Below, piece after piece: positions 467 through 30,410 of a stretch of DNA of 64,000 nt. How positions within the stretch are numbered: the first letter of the stretch is position 1; the number at the start of each line of letters is the position of its first letter. The notes beneath the pieces were generated by a model. The model did no database searches, was not told where the DNA came from, and saw only the letters and a list, made by a program, of their open reading frames with translations. A program made the position numbers and the translations under genes. Origin of the DNA: a virus (lineage: Duplodnaviria; Heunggongvirae; Uroviricota; Caudoviricetes); the IMG/VR virus record IMGVR_UViG_2711768037_000005, positions 1 to 64,000 of that record. The stretch is one strand, 5' to 3'.

Positions 467-479
467 CAGGAGATCAAGG

Positions 480-1172: not shown

Positions 1173-1173
1173 T

Positions 1174-1425
1174 ATGCTAGGCAGCCTGATGACAAAGCTA
1201 AAAGTTGCTTTGATTACGCTGGCTGCCGTTCTTTTCGTTCTGGTCGGCGCTTACACGATGGGCGGAAATGCGGCGCGACGAGCAATAGAAGAGAAGGCAA
1301 AACAGGAAGACAGGAAACGACTTCAAAGCACAGTGGACGTCAAAAATGAAACACTTGATGAGTTACGGAGCAAGGATGCTTCTACTGTTCATCATGAGTT
1401 GCACAATAAGTGGTTGCGTGATTAA
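1174..1425 (+). CDS. i-spanin (Rz-like)
   Basis: N-terminal TM LKVALITLAAVLFVLVGAYT followed by charged coiled-coil-like region; overlaps a lipoprotein ORF in another frame. Confidence 0.5.
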   Translation: MLGSLMTKLKVALITLAAVLFVLVGAYTMGGNAARRAIEEKAKQEDRKRLQSTVDVKNETLDELRSKDASTVHHELHNKWLRD

Positions 1426-1576
1426 GCCTCAACCCGCTGGTGTGCTTTTCTGCGATGCGGCTACACCGCTATACATCAGCCGTGATGATCTCATGACCGA
1501 AGAGACTGAAAGAGAGGTGCTTTTTCACAATATGATAGGGGAGCGATTGTGTGGATGGGGCAGAAAAGTACCATAA
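1346..1576 (+). CDS. o-spanin (Rz1-like) lipoprotein, overlapping the i-spanin gene out of frame
   Basis: Signal-like LLLFIMSCTISGC with lipobox-like cysteines, proline-rich mature part; overlapping Rz/Rz1 architecture; start may be the internal Met. Confidence 0.45.
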   Translation: MKHLMSYGARMLLLFIMSCTISGCVIKPQPAGVLFCDAATPLYISRDDLMTEETEREVLFHNMIGERLCGWGRKVP

Positions 1577-1753
1577 CAGAAGAGGAGTTTTCTAACATAA
1601 AATTTGCATATTATTAGAGCACAAGGTAGATTTGGCACATGGATGTCAAGTAAATCATCCCTTGCATTAATGCTGCGACGCATACTCGTAGCCTCTAAAC
1701 CCTGATAAGGGTCGCCGCTATGACATTAAGTTAATACCGGCTAAGGTGGACAC

Positions 1754-2137
1754 ATGCTGAACGAAAAACGTTCTATACAAACAATTCGCGATTGCACGAG
1801 TGTTATCGCAACTCATGTGCTGAATAAGCGCAAACTTGAGGTGCGTAAACTTAACAACGATGCGACTGCGCCAAAAGACACTCGCTTCATCGTAACTTTC
1901 AAAGACGATGTTGAGAATGCTGGTGCCAGTGTAAAACCGTTGGCTGAAGCGATTTTCCTGAACGATCGTGTTCGTTTCATTGTGAAGCCAGCAAAACAAT
2001 ACCCTGAATTAGCACGGTTTAGTGACCAATTCTCTGAAATTATTGAGAGTGCAATTCGCCGCTTTCTTAATACACATGGTAGCATTGTCAGCAATACAAC
2101 TGCTGATGGTACTGCTCTAAGATGGCACCTACACTAG
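1754..2137 (+). CDS. hypothetical protein
   Basis: ORF track; no recognisable motif. Confidence 0.4.
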   Translation: MLNEKRSIQTIRDCTSVIATHVLNKRKLEVRKLNNDATAPKDTRFIVTFKDDVENAGASVKPLAEAIFLNDRVRFIVKPAKQYPELARFSDQFSEIIESAIRRFLNTHGSIVSNTTADGTALRWHLH

Positions 2138-2874
2138 AACGCACATACTCTAAAAATCTTTATGAGTTTCCTCACCGTGGGGAAACTCGCGTTTCACGTT
2201 TTGGCTACCTCATCAACGAAGCATCGCTTTTCAAAATATCCGAAATAACCATTATCGAGCCTGATGATGATATCTGTCTGTATATCCTGATGGAGAAAGT
2301 TGGAGCACGAGATCAGGGTGAACTGATGGACTTCATTCTGGACAGAGGCGAAGATGGAATGTCTGATTCGGACATTATTCAAGCAATTCTGCGTTCCGAC
2401 ATGCTCGATCAGAGTAGAAACACGATAGCAGGCAGAATTGCCTTGCGTGAATACACATTCATCGAGGATGGGGTAGAGATTGACTGCTATCAGATTGCAG
2501 GTGTTGAGACAGAAAGAGCAATAAGGCAAAGGGGACTATGCAACCTCACGTATCGCTTCCTCCTTCATTGGTACGAACATCTTGTCTGTGATTACAATCA
2601 GACCATTCCTGGCGCAAAAATCTGGGCCGGTCCATTAATGCGAACAGGTGATGTAAGAATTTACAACGCAAAAACTGAGATGTTCGAGGATGTGTTAGGC
2701 GAATATGGGATGGGAAAAGAAACCGGCTTTTTGCCGTGGAACAGAGGATTGTTACTTGATCCAGAATTAAGCTCTTGGTTTCCAAATAAGGTGCAAGTTA
2801 ACGTTGAGAAATTTATCGTACTTATCATCTCCCGCAAAACAAGAACCCCAGTTGGTTTATATCTAAAAGATTAA
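2122..2874 (+). CDS. hypothetical protein
   Basis: ORF track; followed by an intrinsic terminator. Confidence 0.45.
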   Translation: MAPTLERTYSKNLYEFPHRGETRVSRFGYLINEASLFKISEITIIEPDDDICLYILMEKVGARDQGELMDFILDRGEDGMSDSDIIQAILRSDMLDQSRNTIAGRIALREYTFIEDGVEIDCYQIAGVETERAIRQRGLCNLTYRFLLHWYEHLVCDYNQTIPGAKIWAGPLMRTGDVRIYNAKTEMFEDVLGEYGMGKETGFLPWNRGLLLDPELSSWFPNKVQVNVEKFIVLIISRKTRTPVGLYLKD

Positions 2875-2879
2875 CAATT

Positions 2880-2903
2880 AGGCGACTTCGGTCGCCTTTT
2901 TTG
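2880..2903 (+). terminator. rho-independent terminator
   Basis: Hairpin AGGCGACTTCGGTCGCCT followed by TTTTTT. Confidence 0.5.
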
Positions 2904-3050
2904 TTAACAGCCATTGATTCTCGCCTAAAAATTCTAAGGCAGCACCAACCATTTAACCTTTACACAGCAGCCGTAGGCATTTAGGCTATATCACATATAA
3001 GAAAACAAGTTGTTTCAGACAATAATAATAGACGCAAAGGGAACTCTCCA

Positions 3051-3719
3051 ATGACCAAGATCTTTGTGGTTGGCGGCACAAAGGGCGGGCCTGGCAAATC
3101 CACCGTTGCCCAGCAAATTGCCGTTTGCCTGAAAGTCAAAAAGAAGAAGAAGGTTTATATTACCGATATAGATATTCAGCGCACGACAACGAGCTGGTGT
3201 GAAGACCGTCGACAGAACGAAAACCTTGAGCTGATTCCTTTTGCATATGTTCAGGATGACATCATTAAGCATCTAAAATCGCTTCAGGGTAGAGCTGAGT
3301 TTGTAGTGGTAGATGCTGGTGGCTTCGACTCCGAAATTCAGCGACAAGCGATGCTGATGGCTGACGTTATCATTATCCCGCTGCGTCCTAAGCGTCGTGA
3401 TTTGAAATCTTTACGTGACATCGATCCTATTATCGACAATGTTCGCAATGTAAACGATAAAGTGAAGGTCCGTGCGGTCATGAACCAGTGCCCGGCTTTG
3501 CCATCACAAGTGTCTCGCATTCTGGCGGCTAAAGAGATTGTCGAGACGTTTGGCATCGAGCCTGCGCCTGTCAATCTATATAACCGCAACGTCTACGATG
3601 ATGCGGAAGAGTCTGGTCGTTCTATCTTTGAAATGACCGGTAGCGAGCGCGACAAAAAGGCGGAAGCCGAGTTTGAAGAATTTGTAGATTATCTATTGAG
3701 TCTGGAGGAAGAAGAATAA
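3051..3719 (+). CDS. parA: ParA/MinD-family partition ATPase (small ParA type)
   Basis: Deviant Walker A GGTKGGPGKST at N-terminus; 222 aa; stop overlaps start of a small downstream gene. Confidence 0.75.
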   Translation: MTKIFVVGGTKGGPGKSTVAQQIAVCLKVKKKKKVYITDIDIQRTTTSWCEDRRQNENLELIPFAYVQDDIIKHLKSLQGRAEFVVVDAGGFDSEIQRQAMLMADVIIIPLRPKRRDLKSLRDIDPIIDNVRNVNDKVKVRAVMNQCPALPSQVSRILAAKEIVETFGIEPAPVNLYNRNVYDDAEESGRSIFEMTGSERDKKAEAEFEEFVDYLLSLEEEE

Positions 3720-4078
3720 TGTCCATGAAAATGGGTGACCTAGCAAAGCGCAAAGAACCAGATGCACTGGCCAAGAACACAACTCCTTTGCGCCAACCAG
3801 TCAGACCACAGGGACGCCCGACTCGTGGCAAAGAGAAAATTAAAAGCCGCACAATGTCGCTGGAGGACGAATACTTTGAACTTCTGGAAATGATGAAGTG
3901 TATCCCTCGCTTCGAGAAGTTCACCCGTTCTGATGTGATTCGCGCAGCCATTTTCCATCTGGCAGAGAAGTCACCGCAGGAAATCGAGGACATTGTGAAA
4001 CTTAACGAGGCGATCACAGCTGCCGATGTAACGATGCGTACCGATGAAATCAAGCGAGAACTCATGAAAAAAGGCTGA
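3719..4078 (+). CDS. small ribbon-helix-helix-like partner protein (ParG/ParB-like centromere binder), putative
   Basis: Translationally coupled to parA (TAATG overlap); 119 aa with basic N-terminus and RHH-like segment MSLEDEYFELLEMMK. Confidence 0.4.
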   Translation: MSMKMGDLAKRKEPDALAKNTTPLRQPVRPQGRPTRGKEKIKSRTMSLEDEYFELLEMMKCIPRFEKFTRSDVIRAAIFHLAEKSPQEIEDIVKLNEAITAADVTMRTDEIKRELMKKG

Positions 4079-4108
4079 CAACTTCCGGTCTGGCAGCTTC
4101 AATCAGAA

Positions 4109-4166
4109 CCTGTTTCTGTATATAAATAATAAGTAACTTATTATTTATACGGAAGCAGGTCTTTTA
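4109..4166. terminator. large AT-rich hairpin with T-run; likely bidirectional terminator
   Basis: CCTGTTTCTGTATATAAAT ... ATTTATACGGAAGCAGG inverted repeat then TCTTTT; near-identical element at 50821-50893. Confidence 0.45.
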
Positions 4167-4267
4167 AAAGAAACCCACCAGAACAACTCCCTTCCGTTTT
4201 CACTTCCAAAAACTGACACCAGTCGCTATCATCCGCTCATTGCAATAAGTAAGTAACAACCTACCTG

Positions 4268-5017
4268 GTGAGCCACATGAGCCAAATCTTTTTCGATACC
4301 ATCGACAACGACCAGTACGACTTCATGACAGAGTGGAATACCGCTGTTATGGACAAGTGGGTCGCTGAAAACATTGGTTTGTCGCGCTGTAAAGACGAGG
4401 CTGAACTCTTCGAGACGAAGTGGTTTGATTACCGCGACATGCATCCTCTGATGGCCACCTGTCTTTTTACGGAGGCATACAAACGTCAGTACTCAAATAT
4501 CATGCTGACGCACGGTCGTGAACACTTTGAAACAGCTCCGTTCACCACCGGGTTAAAACGCCTGCCTTATCAGGAGTTGTCGACTGCTAATAAAACGTCG
4601 CTATGGAAAGCACGCCAGTTTGCGGATCGCTATTGCTGCTCATACGACTACTTTATCTCCACCGTTCTTTCCGCAGCTGCACGACGGCTGTGGGACAAGC
4701 TGCCGCGCCCACAGCATTTATGGCAGCCAGAGCTGGTTGAGATATTCGAAGAGAAATTAGCCAGACGCGCAACAACACGTCTAGATGATTCTCTGATTAG
4801 CTTTAAGCATATGGGAGACATGCAGTTCAACCCGATTCAGGAAAGCTATTTTGAGTGGATTCTGGAGCGTTTGCGCACTATCCCTCGCAGCAAGCGCATA
4901 CGCGCAATTTTCTCCGCTATCTGGTTAATGGAAATCGTTCCAGAACGCCTTATTTCCGCCCACTTTCCAGAAGAACTGGAAGAAGCACGGCGGTTTATTG
5001 ATCCCCTATCTAATTAA
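4268..5017 (+). CDS. hypothetical protein (position suggests a helicase-associated factor)
   Basis: ORF track; immediately upstream of the helicase gene. Confidence 0.45.
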   Translation: MSHMSQIFFDTIDNDQYDFMTEWNTAVMDKWVAENIGLSRCKDEAELFETKWFDYRDMHPLMATCLFTEAYKRQYSNIMLTHGREHFETAPFTTGLKRLPYQELSTANKTSLWKARQFADRYCCSYDYFISTVLSAAARRLWDKLPRPQHLWQPELVEIFEEKLARRATTRLDDSLISFKHMGDMQFNPIQESYFEWILERLRTIPRSKRIRAIFSAIWLMEIVPERLISAHFPEELEEARRFIDPLSN

Positions 5018-5060
5018 CTAATGCTAGAAAACAATTTGTTTAAAAAACAAAGGAAAGCAC

Positions 5061-6401
5061 ATGACAGAACTTTGCCATACAGGACGCGGGCTGTCCGAAG
5101 AATTTGATGAAGATTTTCAGAACAGATTGACGGCCTATTTTTGTCGTGATCACGAGTTTCTTACTCGTGCGGGAGATCTTGTTGTGCCTAGCCAATTTGC
5201 CAATGCGGCCAATGCCATATTGGTTAATATGGTTTCGGGCTATTATCGTATGTACAAGAGCGCGCCCTCTTCATCTGCAATTCTGGATATGCTTAAGCGT
5301 GCGAAACGCGATAAGACTATCCGTGAGGAACTATTCGCCGATGTTGTTGCTGCGTTTAAGCGCATTCTTGCAGAAAAATTGTCCGATACCTCGTACATGG
5401 TTGACCAGGTATCAACCTTCGCAAAAAGCGTAGCGTTTGATGATGCTCTGATTAAGGCTGCTGAACTGAAAGAGAAAGGCGACTTTCAGGGGGCGATGGC
5501 AATCATGGCCAAGGTTCAGCAGATTGGATCGAACGAAGCGACCGGAATCTATGACTACTACACCTCCGCAAGTGAGCGATTGAAAGCGCGTGAATATGAG
5601 GCTTCAGAGGAGTATGTGCCAAACAGCATTACAACTGGACTCCCTCTGCTCGATAGGTTGCTGTACCAAAAAGGCTGGGCGAAGCGTGAAATGGTGCTCT
5701 TCATGGGGTTCGCTAAATCCGGTAAATCGACCGCAATGGGTGAGTTTTCCATAAACGCAACGCTTGCTGGCTACAATGTTCTGTATCTCTCGCTGGAGGT
5801 TCACACCAACATTTTGTCCGACCGTTTTGATGCAAGATTGTCGGAGACGGAAATGTCCAAGTTGGTGGAACGGCGCGATGAAGTTCATCGTAAGTTGGCA
5901 GAGTTGGGAGCCTCTAAGGGGATTGGTAGTTTGTGGGTTGTTGAGCGTCCGTCAGGAAGTATGTCACCGGCAGATCTGGACCGTATGCTTAACAGTATGA
6001 AAGCCAATGGCATGGTGCCTGACATGGTTGTTGTCGACTACGCAGATTTGATGCGTGCCAGTTATGACCTTCGTGATGATCGCGCCAACATTCGTAGTAT
6101 CTACACCGATTTACGTGCTCTTTATGACAAGCATAACGTTGCTGGGATCACGGCATCGCAGACAAACCGTGAAGGTGGCGCGTCAGAAGTTGCCACAATG
6201 ATGCACGCTGCTGACAACATCGAAAAAGTACGTATTGCTGACCTGGTAATAACGATCAATAAAACCGAAGAAGAAGAAGCGAAAGGAGAGGCTCGTCTCT
6301 ACTTTGCCGGTTCACGTAACCAGCAGGGAGGGATCAGCATTCGCGTTAAACAAAACCTCGAACAAATGCGCTTCATTCAGCGAATCTTAGACGTTACCTA
6401 A
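5061..6401 (+). CDS. DnaB-family replicative DNA helicase
   Basis: Walker A GFAKSGKST and RecA-like C-terminal domain; 446 aa; followed by primase. Confidence 0.6.
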   Translation: MTELCHTGRGLSEEFDEDFQNRLTAYFCRDHEFLTRAGDLVVPSQFANAANAILVNMVSGYYRMYKSAPSSSAILDMLKRAKRDKTIREELFADVVAAFKRILAEKLSDTSYMVDQVSTFAKSVAFDDALIKAAELKEKGDFQGAMAIMAKVQQIGSNEATGIYDYYTSASERLKAREYEASEEYVPNSITTGLPLLDRLLYQKGWAKREMVLFMGFAKSGKSTAMGEFSINATLAGYNVLYLSLEVHTNILSDRFDARLSETEMSKLVERRDEVHRKLAELGASKGIGSLWVVERPSGSMSPADLDRMLNSMKANGMVPDMVVVDYADLMRASYDLRDDRANIRSIYTDLRALYDKHNVAGITASQTNREGGASEVATMMHAADNIEKVRIADLVITINKTEEEEAKGEARLYFAGSRNQQGGISIRVKQNLEQMRFIQRILDVT

Positions 6402-6481
6402 AAAATAAGCGTGGAGAACACCTCCACGCTTGATTCATTGGTGAAACAACTTTTCTTTTGCCAAACCACAAAAGAAAAACA

Positions 6482-7664
6482 CATGAGCCTTTATGTTATA
6501 TCAACATTTAGGTTGGTCACAATATTGCCTGTTAAAAGTGGAATTATCGTGAGCGAGCTGAAAGAGCTAATTGCCGAATTAGATTTTGAACAATGGTTGG
6601 ATACTGAAGGTATCGTTTATCGACGTGGAGGCGTGAGTGCTCGCGGTCGTGAAGTGAATATCAAGGAGTGTCCGGTATGCGGCAGCTCCAACTGGAAGGT
6701 ATATTTCAATCTGACCAGTGGCGTCGGCAAATGCTTCGCTGGTGATCATCCCGAAGAGATTCAGTTCAATAAGCTGGTCTTCCTCAAGCACTACAGCGGT
6801 AAATCACGACGACAGTTCGAGGAATATGTGCAGAACGCTCTTCTTTCCCAGGGGTGGGCACCAAAGAAAGAAGAGATAGTGCTTGCAAGCACAGTCGAGT
6901 TAGAGGGACCACTTGCACTCCCTCGTCATTACGAACTTCCTATAGATGGCCGTCTTCCAGACTATCTGGTTGAACGAAACATATCGCCTGAAATGGCAAA
7001 GTATTTTGACCTACGATACTGCGTCGAAGGCAAGCACGCTTATGTAGATCCGTATACAGATCAGGTTAAAGGACAGATATTCGATATGCGAATACTGATA
7101 CCGGTTTACGATCTGGATGGGGTAATGAAGACATTTCAGGGACGAGACATTACCGGTACAGCAGAACGCCGCTACCTCTTTCCTATGCAGCTTCCAGCTT
7201 CAGGTAAGTTTCTCTACAACGGCCATAATGCAGTCGGCAAACAGACTGTAGTTGTCTGTGAGGGGGCGTTCGATGTTATGGGGGTTAAACGAGCTATTTT
7301 TTACGAAGAAACATTACGTGATTACGTGGAACCAATAGGAACGTTCGGGATGCATCTATCTGGTAACACCACTCAGGATGCAGAAGATCAGTTAGGCGCG
7401 TTCCTGACGCTCAAGGCGCGTGGGTTACGTAATGTGATCATGATGTGGGATAGTGAAAAGCAAGCTATACGCAACACTATGGCCGCAGCCAGGCGACTGA
7501 CCAGTATCGGTCTTAATGTCAAAGTTGCGTGTTTGGGTGAGGAAGGACTCGACCCGGGCGGTGCAACGCCAGAACAAATTATCAAAGCCTATTATCGGGC
7601 AAAACCGTATACCAAACAGTTGGAGTTGCAAAGCAAGATTTTGGGCATTAAGGCGCTATCGTAA
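6482..7664 (+). CDS. DNA primase (zinc-ribbon plus TOPRIM)
   Basis: CPVCGSSNWKVYFN zinc-binding motif; TOPRIM-like VVVCEGAFDVMGV and MMWDSEKQ; ATG at 6482 has the conserved AAAGAAAAACACATG context (ORF track start 6411). Confidence 0.6.
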
Positions 7665-7739
7665 CAAGCGCCGCCAAAATAAGTAGATGGTTACTTATCT
7701 TTCTGTAAGAATACTTTCATCTGTTAGCTAGGAGTTGGT

Positions 7740-8522
7740 ATGAAAGACGAAATTCAGAAATTAGCCTGCGACATCATTGATAAAACTGGTTTAGAAATCA
7801 GCGAGAGCAATCGGCTAGACATCATTGAAAAAGCCGTCAATACGGCAATGGATCATATCGCCACTCGTTTGGTCGAGATCCCGCTACCGGGGCTACCTTA
7901 TCTGAAGGTTAAGTTGTGCGTATGGGGCGAACCTGCACATGCACGACGTTCTGCATTAGTTGTTTTTGTACGCAAAGAAAACTTACGAACTCTAAAAGTG
8001 CAGGTTGGGGCGTGGTTTGATGGCAGAGTCATCTATACAGATACCATTATCTGTCCTCCAGGTGACGAACATATTGAAGCCGTCATTCGAGAATCAATTC
8101 GAGCTATGCGCAGTTTAGCTTTGCTGGAAGACAAGCAAAACTTTGAAGATTACTTGCTGTCGGTAAAAGCTGAACCAACATTGTCTCTGAAAGCCGATTT
8201 CGTAACTCCGACAAACCTGTTGGATGTTTTGATTAATAAAGGTGCTAGTGATGCCGTAAATGTAATCAGGGAGAGCGAATATTCGACTCTTTGCGACATG
8301 TGCAGAAGTCAGTTGGATCTTGTGCATATCGTTGTTGATGCGGGGAAGGCATGTGATGGAGTAATAGCGGAATTTGCTGGGAAGATGGTCAGGATTGCTA
8401 ACGAATTACCGATGATAGAGCAAGAGGCTAAATCATACGCCACCAATCATGTCACAGAGCTTCTTGCCCCCTATCGCTTAGAAAGCGATCAGCGCAAGAT
8501 GATTAGCTGGGGAAGTTGGTAA
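7740..8522 (+). CDS. hypothetical protein
   Basis: ORF track. Confidence 0.45.
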   Translation: MKDEIQKLACDIIDKTGLEISESNRLDIIEKAVNTAMDHIATRLVEIPLPGLPYLKVKLCVWGEPAHARRSALVVFVRKENLRTLKVQVGAWFDGRVIYTDTIICPPGDEHIEAVIRESIRAMRSLALLEDKQNFEDYLLSVKAEPTLSLKADFVTPTNLLDVLINKGASDAVNVIRESEYSTLCDMCRSQLDLVHIVVDAGKACDGVIAEFAGKMVRIANELPMIEQEAKSYATNHVTELLAPYRLESDQRKMISWGSW

Positions 8523-8589
8523 GCTCTCTGTGTGTCGTTTTTTACGCAAATAATGATAGGTAAGCACAAGATTATTTCTGGCGGTAATT

Positions 8590-9060
8590 GTGAAAGCTGA
8601 TTTGTCAAAAATCCCTTCTATTTCAGGAAATAACGGTTATTCACTTCGTTGTGAGGAAGTAAAGATAAACGGTGAGTCGGCATATTGCAGCTATTCCGTT
8701 TGCCAGCACACCATTCTTGCCTTCAAAGAAAACCGTCTTCCTCGAACTTCTTTCCAGTCGTGCGCAACCGCTATTAAAGCAGGCAAATGCAAGGCGTTAA
8801 AAATGATGGTTGAAGAGATTCGTAAAGGAGAATCTCTGTATTTCGAAGATATGACCGCACTCATTAAGGAGGTTGAAGAACGGAATAAACAAGCCAGAAC
8901 TATAAAACGAAAACGTGACAGTGTAACGATTAATGACATGGTTAAGAAGAGCGCCACATCACAAACAACGATCACTGACGTGTATGCGGCGTTGCTTGAA
9001 GAAACAACAAAAGAAACACATGAGCAAATCGATCAACATATGGAGGCAAAACAACAATGA
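8590..9060 (+). CDS. hypothetical protein
   Basis: ORF track; start uncertain. Confidence 0.35.
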   Translation: MKADLSKIPSISGNNGYSLRCEEVKINGESAYCSYSVCQHTILAFKENRLPRTSFQSCATAIKAGKCKALKMMVEEIRKGESLYFEDMTALIKEVEERNKQARTIKRKRDSVTINDMVKKSATSQTTITDVYAALLEETTKETHEQIDQHMEAKQQ

Positions 9061-10379
9061 AAAAGTTGATCGCACTTAAGCATAAGCTGGACGAAATGAA
9101 AGCTATGGGAACCAATGCAAAAAAAGAGGCATTGGCCAACATGGATGACTTTGAACAAAGCATGGTTTCATTGATGCTCAACCCTTTCATCCGTTTTGGG
9201 GTAAAGAAATACAAAGTGGCAGAGCCGCTTAGTGAGTCCGTCCCAAGTGACGAAAAAGCCATTGATATACTGAATAAGCTGGCCTCTCGCGAGCTGACGG
9301 GGAACGCAGCAATAGCAGCTGTTGAGTCTATCGTGGCGTCAATGTGCGCCGATGGGCAGGACGTGTTCCGTCGTTTCCTCTTAAAAGACCCGAAAGCAGG
9401 TGTTGGGATTAGCCTATGCAACAAGGTTTTTGAAAATCCCATTCCGAAATTCGAGGTGCAGCTGGCGTCACCGTATAAAGAAAAAGGCGACAAATACCCC
9501 TTCAAGCCAAATGCTAAAGCAAAATGGCCGATGATTGGCAGTCTTAAGCTCGATGGTTTGCGAGTAATTTGCGAGGTTATTGTTGACGAGGAAGAGGTTA
9601 ACTTCCTTTCTCGTACTGGTAATCCAATCACGTCTCTCGATCACCTAAAGCCAGCCATGCTCGAATTAGGCAAACTTTCAGGCCACAAACACATCTTCTT
9701 CGATGGTGAAGGAACTGCCGGTTCATTTAACCAGTCCGTATCTGCATTGCGCAAAAAGAACGTGCAGGCAATTGGCGCTATTTATCATGTTTTCGACTTC
9801 TTCCTACCGGAATGGCGAGCACAGGCTAAATCCAAAGAGTATGCAAAGACAGGTATGAAGCTGAAAGAGCGCCTGGCTATGCTGGTGGCGTTGTTCAAAA
9901 ACGATCGCAGTGAAGGCTACACACAAGACATTCACCTGCATCCGTTCTATATCATCCATAGCCACGAAGACTTCATCGAACGCTTCATGAAACGCCTGGA
10001 CGATAACGAAGAAGGGGAGATGGGCAAAGATCCGAACTCTGTTTACGAGTTTAAACGTACCCGCAGCTGGTGGAAGTTAAAAGACGAAGATTCAGAAGAT
10101 GGTGAAATTATCGACTTTGAGCCGGGCGATCCGGACTCTGGTTTTGCCAACACGCTTGGAAAAATTGTTATTCGTCTTGAAAACGGCGTCATCGTTCGTG
10201 CGAGCGGTATTAAGCATAAATATCTGGACGAGATCTGGAACAACAAAGAGAAGTACCGTGGTCGTATTGTTGAGGTTCATTGTCACGAGAAAACACCGGA
10301 TGGCAGCTTACGCCACCCACGACTGAAATGGCCGCGTTGCTTACGCGATACAGAAGATCGAATCGGAGATAAAGAATGA
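9057..10379 (+). CDS. ATP-dependent DNA ligase
   Basis: Adenylation motif I KLDGLR in SLKLDGLRVICEV; 440 aa. Confidence 0.7.
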   Translation: MKKLIALKHKLDEMKAMGTNAKKEALANMDDFEQSMVSLMLNPFIRFGVKKYKVAEPLSESVPSDEKAIDILNKLASRELTGNAAIAAVESIVASMCADGQDVFRRFLLKDPKAGVGISLCNKVFENPIPKFEVQLASPYKEKGDKYPFKPNAKAKWPMIGSLKLDGLRVICEVIVDEEEVNFLSRTGNPITSLDHLKPAMLELGKLSGHKHIFFDGEGTAGSFNQSVSALRKKNVQAIGAIYHVFDFFLPEWRAQAKSKEYAKTGMKLKERLAMLVALFKNDRSEGYTQDIHLHPFYIIHSHEDFIERFMKRLDDNEEGEMGKDPNSVYEFKRTRSWWKLKDEDSEDGEIIDFEPGDPDSGFANTLGKIVIRLENGVIVRASGIKHKYLDEIWNNKEKYRGRIVEVHCHEKTPDGSLRHPRLKWPRCLRDTEDRIGDKE

Positions 10380-15130: not shown

Positions 15131-16234
15131 ATGAAAAATAGCTTTGACAGAGCACGCGCAGCAGAAAACACCTCAAAAGAGGCAATTGAGTATCTCGAAA
15201 GAGCATCTCAAATGCAGGCCATTATGATCTCACAGATCAACAATAACATGATATTCTCGGACGCATTCATGTTATTCACTCGCTTATCTCTGCTGATAAC
15301 AAGACGTCGCCCAGAGATCGCTGTTCACTGTATTTTGATACATGTTTTACCGCACATTGCCGATATAAAAGTAAGTGACATTAATCGGTTCATGGTGAAC
15401 CAACTGGTAAACCCGTTAATACTGGATGGCAAAATTGTCATGGGCCGCCGCGTTTTCTCTCTGATGAAGCAGTTCCTTAGCTGGTGCGCCTTCCAGGGGA
15501 TGATAGACGTGTCACCGTTAAACGATATGTCACTAAACAAAGTTGCCGGTGGCGCAAAGCCCACACCTCGCGAGCGTAAGCTGACCGACGCAGAGGTATG
15601 GGTGTTCTGGAATATATGGGACTACTTCAATGTGTGCGCTGGTACAAAATGGGCGGCTAGGCTGTGTCTTGTATCAGCAAGACGACCTGACGAAGTACTG
15701 CGGGCTAAAAAAAGTGAGTTCAATCTTAAGCGTGGGGTTTGGAATCAAGGCAAGAGAAACAAGTCAGCACGTGAGCATTCGCTGCCTTTAAGCACATTAA
15801 TGCGCACATGCATTGAAGAGTTGTTCGAATACGGTAAAGACAGCCAGTGGCTCGTGCCTTCAAATAAAAAAATCGGGAAAGACCTTCCTATGTCTAAAGT
15901 GGCAATAGCACAGGCATTACGTCGTATTCTTGAACGGCCAGAACTGATGGAGCTTGAGCCATTTACACCCCGAGATTTGCGCCGTACTGCGCGTAGTTAC
16001 TTCCCAGCATTAGGCATAAGCCAGGAGGTATCACGCAAAATCATGAACCACAGTCTTGAGGGGATAGATCGGGTCTACGACCGGCACGATTATATGGACG
16101 AGATGCGAGACGCCTTAGAAAGTTTCTCGACGTACATCGCATCAATCGTAGAGCAACCGGATTTAGACGAAATTGACCACAAATTCAAGGGAGATCGTCT
16201 ATCAACAGAGCTTATTCGTGTAAATTTTTCATAG
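15131..16234 (+). CDS. tyrosine site-specific recombinase (integrase or dimer-resolution recombinase)
   Basis: C-terminal catalytic pattern: ARRPDEV (Arg), HSLEG (His), LRRTARS (Arg), YDRHDY (Tyr). Confidence 0.75.
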   Translation: MKNSFDRARAAENTSKEAIEYLERASQMQAIMISQINNNMIFSDAFMLFTRLSLLITRRRPEIAVHCILIHVLPHIADIKVSDINRFMVNQLVNPLILDGKIVMGRRVFSLMKQFLSWCAFQGMIDVSPLNDMSLNKVAGGAKPTPRERKLTDAEVWVFWNIWDYFNVCAGTKWAARLCLVSARRPDEVLRAKKSEFNLKRGVWNQGKRNKSAREHSLPLSTLMRTCIEELFEYGKDSQWLVPSNKKIGKDLPMSKVAIAQALRRILERPELMELEPFTPRDLRRTARSYFPALGISQEVSRKIMNHSLEGIDRVYDRHDYMDEMRDALESFSTYIASIVEQPDLDEIDHKFKGDRLSTELIRVNFS

Positions 16235-16615
16235 AGACTTTATGGCCTCAACAACCTTTTGTGATGCGCCTTTCTCTTTACCGAATCGCTCGTTATATGC
16301 AGCAAGAACCTGTTTTTCGTCCTCGTTAAGAGGAGCGGTGCCTTCTTTGTATAAAAATGCTGCGAGTTCAGGTTGGCGTTCTTCCAGCACCATCATCATA
16401 AGACGACTTGGCTCAATACCCAGCGCCAACGCCAGCGGACGAACCTTATCGATAGGCAAAGGAATTTTGCCACTTTTAATTAAAGAAAGGTTGTTGGCAT
16501 TTTTATAACCAATAAGTCTGGCTATTTGGGCCTGACTCATAGGCGAGGATTCAATCAGCCCTGCGATAAAAGCAGCATAGCGACTTTCTATAAATTCAAT
16601 GTTGTTGTCAGACAT
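16229..16615 (-). CDS. XRE-family helix-turn-helix transcriptional regulator
   Basis: HTH segment SQAQIARLIGYKNANNLSLIKSGK; only sizeable minus-strand gene besides rep; palindrome GGTAAGTGCTTACC about 30 bp upstream of its start. Confidence 0.65.
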   Translation of the reverse strand: MSDNNIEFIESRYAAFIAGLIESSPMSQAQIARLIGYKNANNLSLIKSGKIPLPIDKVRPLALALGIEPSRLMMMVLEERQPELAAFLYKEGTAPLNEDEKQVLAAYNERFGKEKGASQKVVEAIKSL

Positions 16616-23700: not shown

Positions 23701-24313
23701 CCAGGCTGAATTGATGGGAAACCTTGTCATAGACGCAGTTAAAGCCTCACGTCCGTTTGAGATGAACCCCAAACGTTCGGCTGAAATTAACGTACTCATG
23801 ACGCGGATGGCGGCTGAAATGGGCTTAGGTGATGAACTAATCCGCCCCAGCATTGGTATTAAGCCGAAAATCATGATCATTCTGGACAATGCGAACGGCA
23901 ATGATACTCGAACCGGTTACTTCATGGAAAACGGATACGACGATTTTAAGGCCAAGCTATTGACGGCTGGAGATTTACGCATGGGCGATCTCTATGTCAC
24001 AGGAGTTTGCAAGAAGGTTAAAGACAAAGAAAAAGACTACACCAAAGACGAGATCGGCCAGTTCACCGACTTTATGCGTGAAGAGATCAATCTGGTGCGT
24101 CCGACCTATGTGCTGACGTGTGGCAGCCGGGCAACTTCATTGTTTAACAACAAAAACAAGCCATCCGATTTGGTCGGCAGGAAGGAGTATCTTCCAGACC
24201 TTGACGTTACTGTCTTTTACGGGTTTAACCCCAACATTCTTTACTTCAGACCTGAAGAGGGAGAACGACTAGAAGCTATATTAGCCGACGTAGCAGAAAC
24301 TATTAAGACGTGA
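20795..24313 (+). CDS. dnaE: DNA polymerase III alpha subunit (DnaE-type, PHP domain)
   Basis: N-terminal PHP-like MVRTDFSLGESALK; palm motif GPGRGSSAGSLVAWCIGITNVDPI; 1172 aa. Confidence 0.85.
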   Translation: MKALMVRTDFSLGESALKAENAVKIAREAGYTAVISADSMNIASVIPLQRAAGDDMAVICGVKLNIVDDPTYEHRAKLAKESKRCMESLERGRNYSFTALIKNEQGYRDICELMTVANTREQFYFVPRLSLEQLVSTYAKGNIILLTSDIGSVFQRNDFAKIISTLITAGGKDNFYSVVYPHPTPFYDQINVRAMKVASALKIEPVAFYPAYYESIDDADIKDIAHMVTNNIKIDQPHRLRIPHQRDNAINGRRHLLEALKTFSVRMDVPVTAAMASTTQDTIIDACTWRWHELPPALPKMADDEPATLMKLAVAGLRKRLTTKEFGYTPPASENRVYVERLKYEMDTLTRLGFCGYFLMVRDLMNHSRETGIPVGPGRGSSAGSLVAWCIGITNVDPIRHGLLFERFINPERLDLPDADLDFSQARRHEVIEYLNERYGEDYVAGIPNFTYLGAASALRDTARIYGVESADMAVSKELKNVEDDSLPLEELREQLASLDKYATKYPDAFNAACKLQSLMRGFGRHAAGMIVAGVPLTERTPVERRGDARCIAFDKRYCEAMGLIKLDVLGLATLDLLDSAKRYIKESTGEDINLDAISLEDRKVLDGFAAGYTQGVFQLESGPMRKLLKDLGGGIEPMSFKTVVATTALFRPGPIQSGMLDDYVSVAKGFMTPESLHPVLDELTAETNGVILYQEQTMNATRLLAGFTMAEADGVRSAIGKKNMEKMKSMGEKFIVQAQAGWIDVELEDGTTQRIHRAEHFKCEDGTLKTVEEALEYGAKLPINAVRVTASHPGLSEMKAKEIWTAFEKNGAYQFNKSHSVAYSLISYQSMWLKTHYPAEFFAAALTILGEDKHQGLVKDALTYGIRVLPPDVNMSSNRIEIRTLEDGSQVLYAPFSAVKGCSENGCQAIMRAREKVGGKFESLAQFEEAVEKRACNSRVRESLQKVGAFASIEPGSLPATDPERLRDQAELMGNLVIDAVKASRPFEMNPKRSAEINVLMTRMAAEMGLGDELIRPSIGIKPKIMIILDNANGNDTRTGYFMENGYDDFKAKLLTAGDLRMGDLYVTGVCKKVKDKEKDYTKDEIGQFTDFMREEINLVRPTYVLTCGSRATSLFNNKNKPSDLVGRKEYLPDLDVTVFYGFNPNILYFRPEEGERLEAILADVAETIKT

Positions 24314-24438
24314 TCCAATAAACATGGCCTCTATGGCCATGTTTTCCCTTATCCCCTCATATCCCCTATCCTCGAACTCCTTGCCTTATCATCACAATGA
24401 TATAATCAATATAAAATGATAAGTAAAAAGGAAAGCAC

Positions 24439-24870
24439 ATGATCACCGATATTTACGAGAAAATAATGTCTGATCTCGAGTTTGACCGAGACAATCTGGA
24501 GGAAGTCTGGCGTAGACAACCCCGCCTTTTAATGGAGTATGGCTCAAAACTCGCTCATGCAGAAAGAAGTGTCGCAGAGGCAAAACTTAACCTTGAAGCT
24601 GTTGAAGCAAAGCTATACGACACAGAGCGTAAGAACTTGAGTATGAACGGCATTAAGTTCAACGAGTCTGTACTGGACGCTAAGGTTAAAACAAACCCAC
24701 AGTATCTGTCTAAACGGCAGAAGTTGGATGAAGCACGGCACATCGCAGACATATACAAACATGCTGTCGCCGCCTTTTCGCATCGCCGAGACATGATCGT
24801 TCAGGCGTCAAAGATGGCCATCGTTGAATTAGAGCGATTAGGCTCTGAACGCTTTATTACCCCCCGTTGA
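24439..24870 (+). CDS. hypothetical protein, coiled-coil
   Basis: ORF track. Confidence 0.45.
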   Translation: MITDIYEKIMSDLEFDRDNLEEVWRRQPRLLMEYGSKLAHAERSVAEAKLNLEAVEAKLYDTERKNLSMNGIKFNESVLDAKVKTNPQYLSKRQKLDEARHIADIYKHAVAAFSHRRDMIVQASKMAIVELERLGSERFITPR

Positions 24871-27289: not shown

Positions 27290-28363
27290 ATGGCAAAAGC
27301 AAAATCCGCACTGGCACTTGCTCTGAAAAAGAAAATCGGTAGCAACGACGAAATTCAGAAAGTAACTCATTGGATTGATACAGGCTTTCCACCGTTAAAC
27401 AAAGCTATTTCTGGTCGTTACGATGGCGGCTTCCCATGTGGTCGTATCGTCGAAGTATTCGGTCCTCCAAGTGCAGGGAAAACGTTCCTTGCAACAGCAG
27501 CGATGATCTCCGCTCAAAAACAAGATGGTCTGGCGGTATTCCTCGATCATGAAAACAGTTTTGACGTTGGCCTGGCTGTAGCCAATGGCCTGAACGCAGA
27601 TGAGGATGACGGTCAGTGGGTATACAAGCAGCCTGACACCTTCGAAGACTCTGTAGAGTTGATCGGCACAATACTTAAATTGGTACGTGATGAAGAGCTT
27701 ATCCCTGAATCAGCACCTATCTGTATCGTGGCTGACTCTCTTGCGTCTATGGTTCCGAACTCCAAAGCCGAGAAGTTCGAAAAGATGGCTGAAGGCACTG
27801 CCAAAGACAAAGATCAGCTAAACATGAACGACAATACGGCACTGGCTCGTGCGACGAGTGCGAACTTCCCTACTCTGGCTTTGTGGGCACGCAAATACAA
27901 CGCCTGCATCATATTCTTGAATCAGGTTCGCACAAAAATCGGTGTAATGTTTGGCGACCCTACTACGTCGCCAGGTGGAGATTCACCGAAGTTCTACGCT
28001 TCTGTACGTATCCGTCTTGGTGCATCGGTGATGAAGGATGGTAAAGAGAAGATCGGCCAGGACGTAGGCGCAGAGTGCATCAAAAACAAAGTTGCACCAC
28101 CTTATGGCAAATGCACCTGGAAATTCTACTTCGATCCTACTCGTGGCCTCGACGTTATCGAATCGCTCGTCGAGTACATGCTGGAAGAAGGATACCTGCC
28201 AAAGAACGCCAGCGGGCGAGTTGAAATTGGTGACAAGAAATACACCAAATCGCAGATCGTCGAGATGTATCGGGAGAAGCCACTGGCTGAAATCATTGCG
28301 GCTTTGCAGGCAATCGACGACCGAAGAGCAAAAGACAACCCCACCGAGTCAGTAGAAGAGTAA
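27290..28363 (+). CDS. RecA/UvsX-family recombinase
   Basis: GRIVEVFGPPSAGKTFLATAAM matches the RecA Walker A region (E. coli GRIVEIYGPESSGKTT). Confidence 0.8.
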   Translation: MAKAKSALALALKKKIGSNDEIQKVTHWIDTGFPPLNKAISGRYDGGFPCGRIVEVFGPPSAGKTFLATAAMISAQKQDGLAVFLDHENSFDVGLAVANGLNADEDDGQWVYKQPDTFEDSVELIGTILKLVRDEELIPESAPICIVADSLASMVPNSKAEKFEKMAEGTAKDKDQLNMNDNTALARATSANFPTLALWARKYNACIIFLNQVRTKIGVMFGDPTTSPGGDSPKFYASVRIRLGASVMKDGKEKIGQDVGAECIKNKVAPPYGKCTWKFYFDPTRGLDVIESLVEYMLEEGYLPKNASGRVEIGDKKYTKSQIVEMYREKPLAEIIAALQAIDDRRAKDNPTESVEE

Positions 28364-28368
28364 ACACA

Positions 28369-28393
28369 AGGCGTCCATAGGACGCCTTTTTTA
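28369..28393 (+). terminator. rho-independent terminator
   Basis: AGGCGTCCATAGGACGCCT followed by TTTTTT. Confidence 0.5.
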
Positions 28394-28455
28394 TCTCTTG
28401 AAAATATATAAGCACTTACTTATTATTTTCGCATAACAACCACATAGGAAAACAC

Positions 28456-28656
28456 ATGATCAAAATCTATCTATTGGCAGTAGCCACAGGCCTTTCAGTG
28501 GCTCTCATCTACGGTTTACTGGTTCCGTCGCTGATTTCTACCAAGAGTGATTTAGCCGTCATGTTTGGAGTTATCGTTGGTTTTGGTGCTCCTGTAATCG
28601 GTCTTATTGCTGGTCGTAAGTTTATCAACTCATTAATCAAAGCAAAGGGGAAATAA
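28456..28656 (+). CDS. small two-TM membrane protein (NfeD-like partner?)
   Basis: 66 aa, two hydrophobic segments; directly upstream of and nearly abutting the SPFH gene. Confidence 0.4.
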   Translation: MIKIYLLAVATGLSVALIYGLLVPSLISTKSDLAVMFGVIVGFGAPVIGLIAGRKFINSLIKAKGK

Positions 28657-28659
28657 GTA

Positions 28660-29490
28660 ATGAAGAAAGGTTTACTTGCAGTTGCTCTGGCGGCTATTTG
28701 CACAATGGGTCTTACTGGCTGCGATCGCGTGGAGCCTGGATACGTTGGCATCAAAGTAAACAAATTAGGTGAAGACAAAGGGATTGGTGAAGTAGTTGGC
28801 GTTGGTCGCCAATGGACAGGTCTTAACACCGAACTTTACGTATTCCCGACCTTCAAACAAATGAAGACCTACGACGAGCCGTTCACATTCCAGATGAGTG
28901 ACGGTACTGCTATTGGTCACAAAATTGGCGTTGCGTATCTGGTTAATCGTGACAAGGTAACGACGGTGTTCCAGACCTATCGCAAAGGCGTAGACGATAT
29001 CACCGAATCAGATCTGCGTCAGAAAATTGCCGACTCTCTAAACCGTTTGGCAAGCCGTATGACCACTGACTCATTTATCGACGGTGGTAAGGCGCAATTG
29101 CTGGACAACGCACTGAAAGATATTCAGAAAGAGATGTCTCCGGTTGGTATTGAGGTACTGAGCCTGTCATGGGTTGGAAAGCCTGATTACCCAAAAACCG
29201 TCATTGAATCTATCAACGCCAAAGTAACGGCTAACCAGCGTACTCTGCAACGTCAGCAGGAAGTTGAACAGCGTAAAGCTGAGGCGAATATGCTACGTGA
29301 ACAGGCTAATGGTGAAGCTGATGCTATCCGTGCTCGTGCGCAAGCAGAAGCCGACGCCATTCGTCTGCGCGGTGAAGCTCTGCGTCAAAACCCGAACGTT
29401 ATGGAGCTGGAAGCCATCAATAAATGGAATGGCCAGTTACCGCAGTACATGACTCAAGGGGCTAACACTCCTTTCATTACAGTGAAATAA
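28660..29490 (+). CDS. SPFH/band-7 (HflK/HflC-, stomatin-like) lipoprotein
   Basis: Signal plus lipobox LTGC; SPFH-like core; C-terminal coiled-coil EADAIRARAQAEADAIRLRGEA typical of HflC/prohibitin. Confidence 0.65.
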   Translation: MKKGLLAVALAAICTMGLTGCDRVEPGYVGIKVNKLGEDKGIGEVVGVGRQWTGLNTELYVFPTFKQMKTYDEPFTFQMSDGTAIGHKIGVAYLVNRDKVTTVFQTYRKGVDDITESDLRQKIADSLNRLASRMTTDSFIDGGKAQLLDNALKDIQKEMSPVGIEVLSLSWVGKPDYPKTVIESINAKVTANQRTLQRQQEVEQRKAEANMLREQANGEADAIRARAQAEADAIRLRGEALRQNPNVMELEAINKWNGQLPQYMTQGANTPFITVK

Positions 29491-29506: not shown

Positions 29507-29534
29507 CAGGCGTCCAGTTGGACGCCGTTTTATT
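29507..29534 (+). terminator. rho-independent terminator
   Basis: CAGGCGTCCAGTTGGACGCCG then TTTTATT. Confidence 0.5.
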
Positions 29535-29585
29535 CTCGTTATTATCACACACAAGAAAACAATTTGTTAAAAGGTTAAGTTAATT

Positions 29586-30410
29586 ATGCCCAACCACATT
29601 ACAAACGAAATCCGAGTCATAGGTGGTACAAATAAACAACGCTTAGATTTCATACGTTCCATAACTAACAAAAAAGGTCTAATTGACTTTAATACCATTT
29701 GCAGACGTCCGAAAAGTATAGAAATGGAAGAAAACAATCATATCAGGCGCATGGCCTCTGCAATGGCGGGCGAAACAGTTTACGACCACATGTTCGGTGA
29801 ATTAAAGACTCCAGAACAGGTCGAATTAGCTATGCGTGAATCAGGAATGACACGCAAGGAAATTCGCAAAATCAAAGAGCAGGCTCTTATGCGGCTTGAG
29901 AATTATCGTCGCTATGGCTATTACTCATGGTTTGACTGGTCGCGAGCTAATTGGGGAACAAAATGGAATGCCTACAACATCGAAATGCCCGTAAAACGTA
30001 TCCCTACACGTATTAAGTACGGCCATAATTTCCGCCATACACACGTTCGAGCATATGCAAAACGAATCTATAAAAAACGTCTTGCAAGACATGCCGCAAC
30101 TGGTGGTGAGTTGGTGATTCGCTTTGAAACAGCCTGGTCTATGCCAAAACCAATTTATCAAGCGATGGCTAGAAAGTTCCCGCACCTTGAGTTTGTAATA
30201 CGTTATGCAGACGAAGACTTCGGCAATAACTGCGGATTCATTTTACTTCGCAACGGCAAATGGGAATATGACTACATTGCACCGGCGAATAACAAACAAT
30301 CGTCAGAAGAAAAAATCAAATGGCGCAAGTTCGCCTTTGAGTTATGTTGTCCTGGTATCACTCCACAAGAATACGGTCTAAATGAAGAATACGAATACGC
30401 CGGATATTAA
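29586..30410 (+). CDS. hypothetical protein
   Basis: ORF track; preceded by the AACAATTTGTT palindrome. Confidence 0.5.
   Translation: MPNHITNEIRVIGGTNKQRLDFIRSITNKKGLIDFNTICRRPKSIEMEENNHIRRMASAMAGETVYDHMFGELKTPEQVELAMRESGMTRKEIRKIKEQALMRLENYRRYGYYSWFDWSRANWGTKWNAYNIEMPVKRIPTRIKYGHNFRHTHVRAYAKRIYKKRLARHAATGGELVIRFETAWSMPKPIYQAMARKFPHLEFVIRYADEDFGNNCGFILLRNGKWEYDYIAPANNKQSSEEKIKWRKFAFELCCPGITPQEYGLNEEYEYAGY

Follow-up and report, generated by a model that had tools for sequence, protein, structure and literature searches.

What does a phage gain from a lipoprotein with an SPFH/Band-7 domain that is encoded directly behind a gene for a tiny two-helix membrane protein? The question was raised by positions 28456-29490 of a 64,000-nucleotide stretch of viral DNA (Caudoviricetes; IMG/VR record IMGVR_UViG_2711768037_000005, positions 1 to 64,000), which is referred to as a whole as the window and which, collinear with the SSU5-like phage-plasmids Cyrano, PhiR41_1 and SSU5, is itself an SSU5-like phage-plasmid. 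An earlier note on this DNA had likened the two genes to NfeD-stomatin or HflK/C operons and had supposed an influence on lysis-lysogeny decisions or on superinfection exclusion. Sequence comparison shows instead one SPFH protein with a partner of another kind, and on this evidence the pair is a conserved two-gene module across many unrelated phages. We see an even chance that the two open reading frames (ORFs) are one transcription unit for a phage-borne membrane scaffold of the SPFH kind, each ORF encoding one of its two subunits, and that this scaffold is active in lytic development. The copy in the window is an ordinary member of already annotated families; what is new is the module, split or fused. 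In the literature and in phage annotations only annotation-level remarks were found, with no functional study of phage SPFH proteins in the texts searched, and these texts nowhere describe the two-transmembrane (2-TM) partner, its pairing with SPFH or the fusions.

The SPFH lipoprotein and its small membrane partner

The 2-TM ORF of 66 amino acids (aa) and the lipoprotein gene behind it were both found where the earlier note had placed them (Table 1). The 276-aa protein scored 106.2 bits with the Band_7 model (PF01145; cut-off 23.6, E 2.6e-30) over residues 23-209, and its residues 1-275 aligned with positions 80-359 of the 379-position profile of PHROG 200, 'lipoprotein' (E 3e-108). Its signal peptide ends in L-T-G-C, in agreement with the lipobox pattern [LVI][ASTVI][GAS]C, and the lipobox cysteine was at least 90% conserved among 103 diverse homologues. 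An AlphaFold2 monomer model from a 103-sequence alignment (mean pLDDT 92.5) showed an alpha/beta SPFH core followed by an unbroken helix of 65 residues (179-243), so that the long C-terminal helix described earlier was borne out. The tail past residue 255 is conserved (W256, G258, P261) but disordered in the monomer model.

Foldseek searches with this model gave near full-length matches (245-315 columns for most of the top ones) to prohibitin, HflK, HflC, erlin, stomatin, flotillin and QmcA; the major vault protein was also among the matches. The family profile matched prohibitin-1 best (5e-10), followed by HflK (3e-7), HflC (5e-6) and QmcA (1.7e-5), which places the phage family nearest to the prohibitin/HflKC branch, with its non-cytoplasmic SPFH domains and membrane AAA+ protease partners. 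Such a non-cytoplasmic orientation would agree with an exported lipoprotein. Orthology to HflK or HflC was rejected, as the protein scored 30.2 bits against a cut-off of 134.4 with the HflC equivalog model (TIGR01932) and 18.7 bits against 159.4 with that of HflK (TIGR01933), both more than 100 bits short. The tandem layout of HflK and HflC, two paralogues that each have an N-terminal TM anchor, was likewise absent: only one SPFH gene is present, its product begins with a lipoprotein signal peptide, and the neighbouring gene encodes a 66-aa hairpin without an SPFH domain. The reading as an HflK/C-type operon thus fell, and with it the wording 'SPFH pair', which has to give way to one SPFH protein and one non-SPFH membrane partner.

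In E. coli, Asp at position +2 behind the lipobox cysteine is the Lol-avoidance signal that retains lipoproteins in the inner membrane. Asp was found at this position in the enterobacterial members (window, SSU5, phiP27, P88 and KpCHEMY26). Because of Asp +2 and of the layout of natural fusions described below, the SPFH lipoprotein most likely sits in the inner membrane and faces the periplasm.

The hydrophobic stretches of the 66-aa protein comprise residues 7-23 and 35-51, with the polar loop PSLISTKSDL between them; 14 residues remain past the second TM segment, and the C-terminus is a basic tail (GRKFINSLIKAKGK). Loop and tail agree with a hairpin that has both ends in the cytoplasm (N-in/C-in), a topology that fits the protein. 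Residues 1-65 matched the 66-position profile of PHROG 1130, 'membrane protein' (E 2.1e-25), while searches of Pfam (E up to 0.01, NfeD models included) and NCBIfam gave no match. NfeD identity was rejected on this outcome and on the length of the protein, which is too small for the soluble C-terminal domain of NfeD. Of the two profile hidden Markov model (HMM) matches that the earlier note had anticipated, that of Band_7 was obtained with the large protein and that of NfeD was not obtained with the small one; what stands of the likeness to an NfeD-stomatin operon is the analogy in layout, i.e. a small membrane gene that lies upstream and is coupled.

The upstream ORFs and the N-termini of the fusions share the PHROG 1130 partner motif P-x-L-[IV]-S-[AS]-x-[SD]. 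Its fuller form, ...G-[LV]-x-P-x-[LM]-[IVL]-S-[AS]-x-[SD]...V..G, runs from the last part of helix 1 across the turn into the beginning of helix 2. In the SSU5-like alleles the core Y-G-L-L-V-P-S-L-I-S-A-K-S-D-L-A was nearly invariant.

A two-gene module conserved in unrelated phages

A small ORF was present directly upstream of the SPFH gene in all 85 loci with a 77-100% identical SPFH protein, i.e. in the window, four annotated phages and 80 IMG/VR contigs. With the 66-aa protein as query, tblastn reached six records only, all of them SSU5-like, and the small-protein family emerged only by way of an HMM from upstream ORFs and fusion N-termini. This 2-TM HMM, for which the N-termini of 18 fusions were combined with twelve upstream ORFs and one module from a C-terminus, was run against 4208 stop-to-stop ORFs from 19 diverse phage loci and the whole 64-kb window. 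All matches at E<1e-3 lay on the same strand as an SPFH gene and at most 500 nt upstream of it, in 16 of the 19 loci, and the sole match in the window was the 66-aa ORF. Four matches came from outside the training set, namely PVP-SE1 gp115 (1.7e-17), phiM6_106 (1e-8), TL gp10 (6e-8) and phiEa104_00850 (2e-4).

SPFH homologues were found in 413 of 50,697 phage records (~0.8%). The temperate carriers included SSU5-like phages, P88 (Peduoviridae, P2 family), phiP27 and Stx2a-converting phages. Other lineages were represented by N4-like Schitoviridae, the rV5-like PVP-SE1, the FelixO1-like phiEa104, the Bruynoghevirus TL and a T7-like Desulfovibrio phage, and further carriers were phiCbK, a crAss-like phage, Lak megaphages and Bacillus Herelleviridae; the hosts range from Proteobacteria to Bacteroidota. 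All the lineages named here after the temperate ones are generally held to be strictly virulent. Occurrence in virulent phages has likewise been remarked on by others (PMC8540360). In complete E. coli genomes the cassette was found in 373 of 5426 (~7%), many of them clinical isolates; plasmids of ~110 kb accounted for 195 of its places and chromosomes for 204.

The annotation of the module is open to correction, the small gene being often unannotated (phiP27, PGAP-annotated E. coli prophages) and the SPFH gene being often mislabelled as 'serine protease' or 'transposase fusion protein'. In the RefSeq record of phiP27 the partner gene (4759-4947), which overlaps L05 by 4 nt, is present yet unannotated. 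The same was observed on the chromosome of E. coli 190693 in a PGAP-annotated P2-like prophage (~5746-5946), where a frame change in the signal-peptide region of the SPFH gene suggests an indel or a pseudogene.

The SPFH gene was repeatedly found near RNA-repair or tRNA genes, namely those for RtcB (phiCbK), a CCA-adding enzyme (phiEa104), a tRNA cluster (Paxi) and a TROVE protein (cr106_1). In published data on infection with PAK_P3, the mean reads of a host 'SPFH/Band 7' gene of P. aeruginosa PAK, which adjoins RtcB, a nucleotidyltransferase and tRNA-Arg (genes PAK_4491-4495), climb from 15 to 6009 by 13 min (PMC4933390).

Natural fusions of the two proteins

An exhaustive HMMER search of 1.84 billion representatives returned 2816 relatives at E up to 0.001, 195 of them below 1e-30. 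Among the best 150 representatives (50% identity level), about 18 were fusions of 320-390 aa; counts that derive from sorting the N-termini by regular expression are approximate only, as the expression was too strict (36 of 150 sorted as 'no motif'). The fusions carry, in this order, the 2-TM module, a basic linker, a third hydrophobic helix ending in a lipobox, and the SPFH domain, and the lipobox cysteine was invariant in 18 of 18. Several of them cannot be run-ons of gene calling, because they have no internal Met before the third helix, and two were traced to exact ORFs in independent assemblies with phage-like gene surroundings. The AlphaFold2 model of one fusion showed a helix (2-25), a turn, a helix (30-61), a further helix (68-88) and then the SPFH domain. 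The model is consistent with a layout in which both hairpin ends would be cytoplasmic, the third helix would cross outward and the SPFH domain would lie in the periplasm with its tether in the inner membrane. Taken together, the fusions, the translational coupling and the strict synteny speak for a single complex of both proteins, at work in one and the same membrane.

A single homologue, P0130 (344 aa), had the 2-TM module behind the SPFH part, at the C-terminus. In this protein other residues stand in place of the P-F-I motif with which the family normally ends, and a Met-Lys-Lys start precedes the module. Because the C-terminal family motif is missing, P0130 was read as a frameshift fusion, probably a read-through into the downstream gene at a locus with reversed gene order.

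Selection and possible exchange of partners

With the small gene, the ratio of nonsynonymous to synonymous substitution rates (dN/dS) came to 0.13-0.23; the SPFH gene gave ~0.03. Given the pairing in 85 of 85 loci, these values and the conservation of the lipobox cysteine, both ORFs are real genes and not chance ORFs. The small protein diverges faster, to ~59% identity at 95% SPFH identity and to ~32% at 78%; relative to the SSU5 pair, the identity was 94% for the SPFH protein and 59% for the small one. When positions 28456-29490 of the window were compared with positions 8724-9758 of Cyrano, the SPFH genes were 99.0% identical in nucleotides and their proteins 100% identical, and the small genes showed 79% nucleotide and 73% amino acid identity, with a dS of 0.63 versus 0.04 for SPFH. 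Such strong divergence beside near-identical SPFH genes suggests a recombination breakpoint between the two genes, across which partner alleles may be swapped.

Transcription of the gene pair

The two ORFs lie in the same frame with a gap of 3 nt (TAA GTA ATG), and in phiP27, P88, KpCHEMY26 and cr106_1 both genes overlap by 4 nt. By this layout, with a putative ribosome-binding site inside the small gene (Table 1), the SPFH gene is translationally coupled to the small gene. Hairpins resembling terminators flank the unit, and the stem of the upstream one is kept in relatives. The promoter site was near-invariant in SSU5, Cyrano and two IMG/VR relatives, in which the flanking genes have 62-80% nucleotide identity.

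The promoter spacer contains a palindrome that recurs in the window. With at most one mismatch to the degenerate pattern RTAAGYRCTTAY, ten sites were found in the window versus 1.58 expected, and none of 100 shuffles reached ten. The extended consensus is approximately ATAG-GTAAGYRCTTAC-CTAT. All ten sites lie in gaps between listed ORFs of at least 120 aa. Among the genes that they precede are those for SSB, RNR, ThyX, a cobS-like protein and the SPFH pair, and one site is located directly upstream of a putative repressor gene (16229-16615, minus). The sites probably mark out a regulon, with the motif as its operator or as a phage-specific promoter element.

In P88 the pair belongs to the gene block after cox, and in phiP27 it is located between the regulatory genes and xis-int. 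In virulent phages it is found among replication genes (DNA polymerase, exonuclease, dUTPase, ThyX). From the conserved promoter, the motif common to replication-gene sites and the location in early or replication regions elsewhere, we infer that lytic growth is the phase in which the pair is expressed, along with the replication genes.

Proposed function and comparison with known SPFH systems

In the model put forward here, the 276-aa protein would be exported, lipid-modified at Cys21 and anchored facing the periplasm, most likely at the inner membrane. Like prohibitin, HflK/C, erlin and stomatin, it would form a closed ring, or cage, around a patch of membrane. The 66-aa hairpin, with both ends in the cytoplasm and a conserved turn in the periplasm, would be a membrane-embedded subunit of this cage and would supply in trans the transmembrane 'fence' that HflK and HflC have in cis. 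The unit would be turned on with replication and nucleotide-metabolism genes, in agreement with a role in the lytic phase and not in a lysogeny switch, and the cage may enclose a conserved client in the host inner membrane, e.g. FtsH. Cage assembly, the inner-membrane site, a 1:1 complex and the timing of expression are all parts that we infer. The analysis itself establishes the two genes as such, the families to which they belong, the fold, the recurrent pairing, the fusions in nature and the genomic setting.

FtsH is the leading guess for the client, because the prohibitin/HflKC branch partners with membrane AAA+ proteases and because conservation is strong across phages of hosts from different phyla. 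More generally, very strong purifying selection on the SPFH protein, hosts across phyla and the affiliation with prohibitin and HflKC suggest that a conserved host component or a general membrane property is addressed, rather than a variable incoming phage.

In the solved SPFH assemblies of HflK/C, QmcA, flotillin and prohibitin, 22-44 subunits make up a cage within which a patch of membrane is enclosed (PMC12478178). The E. coli HflK/HflC-FtsH complex (PDB 7vhp, 7wi3, 9cz2) shares with the phage protein the SPFH fold and the long wall helix (near full-length Foldseek matches, E ~1e-13 to 1e-14), a periplasmic SPFH domain at the inner membrane and transmembrane helices as part of the assembly, the location and assembly being predicted on the phage side. 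The phage unit differs in having one SPFH gene, of 16-18% identity, in place of a heterodimeric pair, and in that its protein is anchored by an N-terminal lipid, the TM part being a separate 66-aa hairpin that is fused in some relatives. Prohibitin PHB1/PHB2 (PDB 8rrh, 9o9z) gave both the top profile match (positions 7-243) and the top Foldseek match and likewise has a non-cytoplasmic SPFH domain. It partners with a membrane AAA+ protease (m-AAA). However, prohibitin is eukaryotic and hetero-oligomeric and has an N-terminal TM anchor, with neither a lipobox nor a small hairpin partner.

The SPFH-NfeD operon is represented in E. coli by QmcA-YbbJ (PDB 8z5g), in which a small membrane gene is again found directly upstream of the SPFH gene, and QmcA resembled the phage SPFH protein in fold (8.5e-8) as well as in profile. 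QmcA faces the cytoplasm and is not a lipoprotein. In contrast, the phage protein is a lipoprotein predicted to be periplasmic, and its partner is not an NfeD protein and has the PHROG 1130 motif of its own. In QmcA-YbbJ, the TM helices of the partner lie within the membrane patch of a 26-mer cage (PMC12478178). The known PHROG 200/1130 pairs (SSU5 gp62/gp61, P88 gp12/gp11, phiP27 L05 and PVP-SE1 gp117/gp115) have the gene order of the window and no structural difference from it.

Several observations weigh against the proposed model. No 2-TM member was detected by HMM in 3 of the 19 loci (phiCbK, Burkholderia vB_PR1 and Bacillus Atlee), and in four other loci one or two small genes stand between the partners. 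The formation of a cage is deduced from solved relatives, the contact between the 2-TM and SPFH proteins is likewise a prediction, and FtsH was guessed by homology. The motif may be a promoter element instead of an operator, and the flanking terminators with a sigma-70-type promoter would fit a moron expressed in the lysogen equally well. Outside the members with Asp +2, the residue after the cysteine is S, T, G, E or N; since this residue varies and sorting rules differ by host, the membrane location is a prediction. TLR1/2 signalling, as is known for the Pasteurella protein considered next, is to be expected of a triacylated lipoprotein. That protein, PM0222 (Pmorf0222) of a Pasteurella multocida prophage island, is also a prophage-borne SPFH protein, here likened to the phage family by description only. 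It is HflK/C-like, has been linked to TLR1/2 signalling and envelope traits, was found in outer-membrane vesicles and has been studied as a virulence factor (PMC9872710); it thus differs in its reported vesicle location and in that the work concerned virulence and not the phage life cycle.

A bolder version of the model is offered as a tentative and rather unlikely extension. The module would be a widespread device for host takeover, a split, lipid-anchored cage of the HflK/C-prohibitin type that forms early in infection at the periplasmic face of the inner membrane, corrals a conserved host machine, with FtsH as prime candidate, and reprograms membrane proteostasis or envelope synthesis; in the fusions, signal peptidase II would cut one precursor into the two subunits at the invariant lipobox cysteine. 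If true, such cleavage would be an unusual, polyprotein-type maturation for a bacterial lipoprotein. SPFH cages (prohibitin, HflK/C, stomatin, flotillin, erlin) are intensely studied structurally and their effect on the enclosed membrane is debated; phages appear to carry a minimal, mobile version in two parts. As the module is so widely kept and under strong purifying selection, it must benefit the phage, and as a two-gene cassette it should be easy to express, delete and purify. With its client identified, the means by which phages act upon the inner membrane of the host would become visible, and the module would provide a simple homo-oligomeric model of SPFH cage function.

Alternative functions

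Superinfection exclusion is an unlikely function of the pair, though much of its setting would suit one. An early-made periplasmic scaffold with its partner would block DNA ejection or inner-membrane passage of other phages, possibly also at a low level in lysogens. Precedents for exclusion at the envelope are T4 Imm/Sp, T5 Llp and TP-J34 Ltp. The products are an envelope lipoprotein and a small inner-membrane protein, the genes lie in early regions, and the cassette moves among unrelated temperate phages (SSU5-like, the P2-like P88, phiP27). Within Bruynoghevirus the gene is accessory, present or absent among close relatives (PMC8540360), and in a Vi01-like phage the SPFH gene adjoins a gene annotated as superinfection exclusion protein (PMC3220722). 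However, the SPFH gene is under strong constraint, whereas known exclusion proteins are usually narrow in range and fast-evolving, and its conservation all the way from phages of Enterobacteria to the crAss-like and Lak groups suggests that the target is a host feature which is itself conserved. In PADLOC-DB 2.0 (E up to 0.01) neither protein was matched, nor were the four downstream genes apart from a meaningless LmuB match (E 0.007), and a known anti-phage defence system was rejected on this outcome.

A role in membrane maintenance or lysis timing is judged quite unlikely. The scaffold would stabilise the inner membrane or the proton-motive force against holin build-up, envelope remodelling or abortive-infection effectors and so avert early collapse and protect burst size. 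Bacterial SPFH proteins do take part in membrane stress, e.g. the PspA-linked SPFH protein of B. subtilis (PMC8581546; bioRxiv 10.64898/2026.02.06.704340), and if a membrane property of a general kind were concerned, the spread over phage families and host phyla would suit it. The pair of one crAss-like phage is located two genes upstream of a peptidoglycan hydrolase, with a multi-TM protein between. However, the pair lies ~27 kb from endolysin, Rz and Rz1 in the window and is far from lysis genes in most other loci, and this role overlaps with sequestration of a client, from which it is hard to separate.

The function supposed in the earlier note, in which an NfeD-stomatin or HflK/C-type operon tunes the FtsH-dependent stability of a CII-like protein and hence the lysis-lysogeny decision, appears very unlikely. 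In its favour, HflK and HflC are indeed matched by the family profile, and FtsH is known to have HflKC as a partner; the element has temperate traits (integrase, the putative repressor, ParA), and the same idea has been voiced for other phages in annotation papers (PMC10269572, PMC8540360). Against it stand the equivalog scores, the absence of an NfeD partner, the early-operon position in the temperate phages P88 and phiP27, and the presence of the module in many lineages regarded as strictly virulent (PMC8540360), because of which a role specific to lysogeny is improbable. The link to FtsH is the part of the earlier idea that is kept as a hypothesis.

Lysogenic conversion, by a moron lipoprotein that is expressed in the carrier state and alters the host envelope or acts on the animal host (TLR2 stimulation, serum resistance, capsule or biofilm), is highly improbable. 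The unit's own sigma-70-like promoter and flanking terminators, the frequency in complete E. coli genomes with their many clinical isolates, and the precedent of PM0222, drawn by description only, would be in keeping with it, but the promoter motif is the same as at the replication genes, and many carriers belong to lineages regarded as virulent.

A part in lysis, with the 66-aa protein acting as holin or antiholin of class II and the lipoprotein spanning the envelope in the manner of a spanin, is scarcely credible: a hairpin with a basic tail is pinholin-like in size and topology, an inner-membrane protein with a long-helix lipoprotein superficially recalls Rz/Rz1, and P0130 has a u-spanin-like layout, but the window has lysis genes of its own (Table 1) and, before them, an ORF where Cyrano has its holin gene, the small gene is linked to the SPFH gene and not to an endolysin, with no adjacent lysis gene in 18 of 19 diverse loci, Asp +2 speaks against the outer-membrane site required of an o-spanin, and P0130, lacking the P-F-I motif, looks like a frameshift read-through. 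A lysis-cassette identity of the pair was accordingly rejected, so that the refutation which the earlier note had envisaged did not come about as far as lysis is concerned. Rz/Rz1 remains a parallel as a phage pair of inner-membrane protein and lipoprotein acting in the periplasm (an action that is predicted here); the present membrane protein differs in being tiny and without a periplasmic domain, and the lipoprotein in being large, with an SPFH fold and Asp +2.

Genomic surroundings

The coordinates of the gene pair, its control elements and its neighbours are compiled in Table 1.

Table 1. Positions of features in the window (aa, amino acids; TM, transmembrane)
Feature	Position	Strand	Remarks
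2-TM protein gene	28456-28656	+	66 aa; PHROG 1130 family
SPFH/Band-7 lipoprotein gene	28660-29490	+	276 aa; PHROG 200 family
Lipoprotein signal peptide	28660-28722	+	Lipobox LTGC; Cys21 codon 28720-28722; residue +2 Asp (C-D-R)
SPFH (Band_7) domain	28726-29286	+	Residues 23-209; PF01145; model pLDDT >90 here
Long helix and second helix	29194-29424	+	Residues 179-243 and 245-255; AlphaFold2; equivalent to wall helices of SPFH cages
Shine-Dalgarno-like GGGGA of SPFH gene	28647-28651	+	Inside 3' end of small gene; read from sequence
Sigma-70-like promoter	28398-28426	+	TTGAAA-17 nt-TATTAT; 10/12 consensus matches
Palindrome ATAAGCACTTAC	28408-28419	.	In promoter spacer; 1 of 10 intergenic copies
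Palindromic 12-mers (window starts)	11201, 16646, 19305, 24888, 28408, 40641, 45351, 50188, 52402, 57374
Intrinsic-terminator-like hairpin with T-run	28368-28388	+	9-bp stem, 6 G-C pairs, TTTTTT; ends recombinase gene
Terminator-like hairpin	29509-29526	+	Ends the two-gene unit
RecA/UvsX-like recombinase gene	27290-28363		Upstream neighbour of gene pair
Lysis cassette	98-1558		Endolysin 480-1169; Rz 1174-1419; Rz1 1442-1558

The 4 kb of the window that were tested showed 98.8% identity to Escherichia phage CMS-2020a. In the lysis cassette, the endolysin was 99.6% identical to that of Cyrano, and the ORF 98-466 before it occupies the position of the Cyrano holin gene. Nucleotide similarity to PhiR41_1, Cyrano, SSU5 and one CMS-2020a record ended at 29569-29579, past the terminator of the SPFH gene, and the sole relative whose similarity runs on beyond this terminator was CP054387. 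The next gene (29586-30410) encodes a product with a DUF1281_C/Api92-like ferredoxin-like domain (E 1.1e-15). From ~29530-29580 onward the region has the appearance of a mosaic junction and of a slot for variable cargo.

The recombinase gene upstream of the pair measures 1074 nt in the window and 2340 nt in Cyrano (6291-8630), and the window protein covers positions 487-779 only of the 779 positions of PHROG 9666, i.e. the C-terminal part. The longer Cyrano gene and the match confined to the C-terminal part suggest an intein or another insertion in the recombinase gene of some relatives. In Cyrano, HicA/HicB were observed between the DNA polymerase III alpha gene and uvsY (50263-52241; window counterpart 24313-24439), and its lysis genes are adjoined by a KacT-type toxin pair. 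A tblastn search of the window found neither HicB nor KacT, which points to a toxin-antitoxin cargo that varies among otherwise collinear phage-plasmids.

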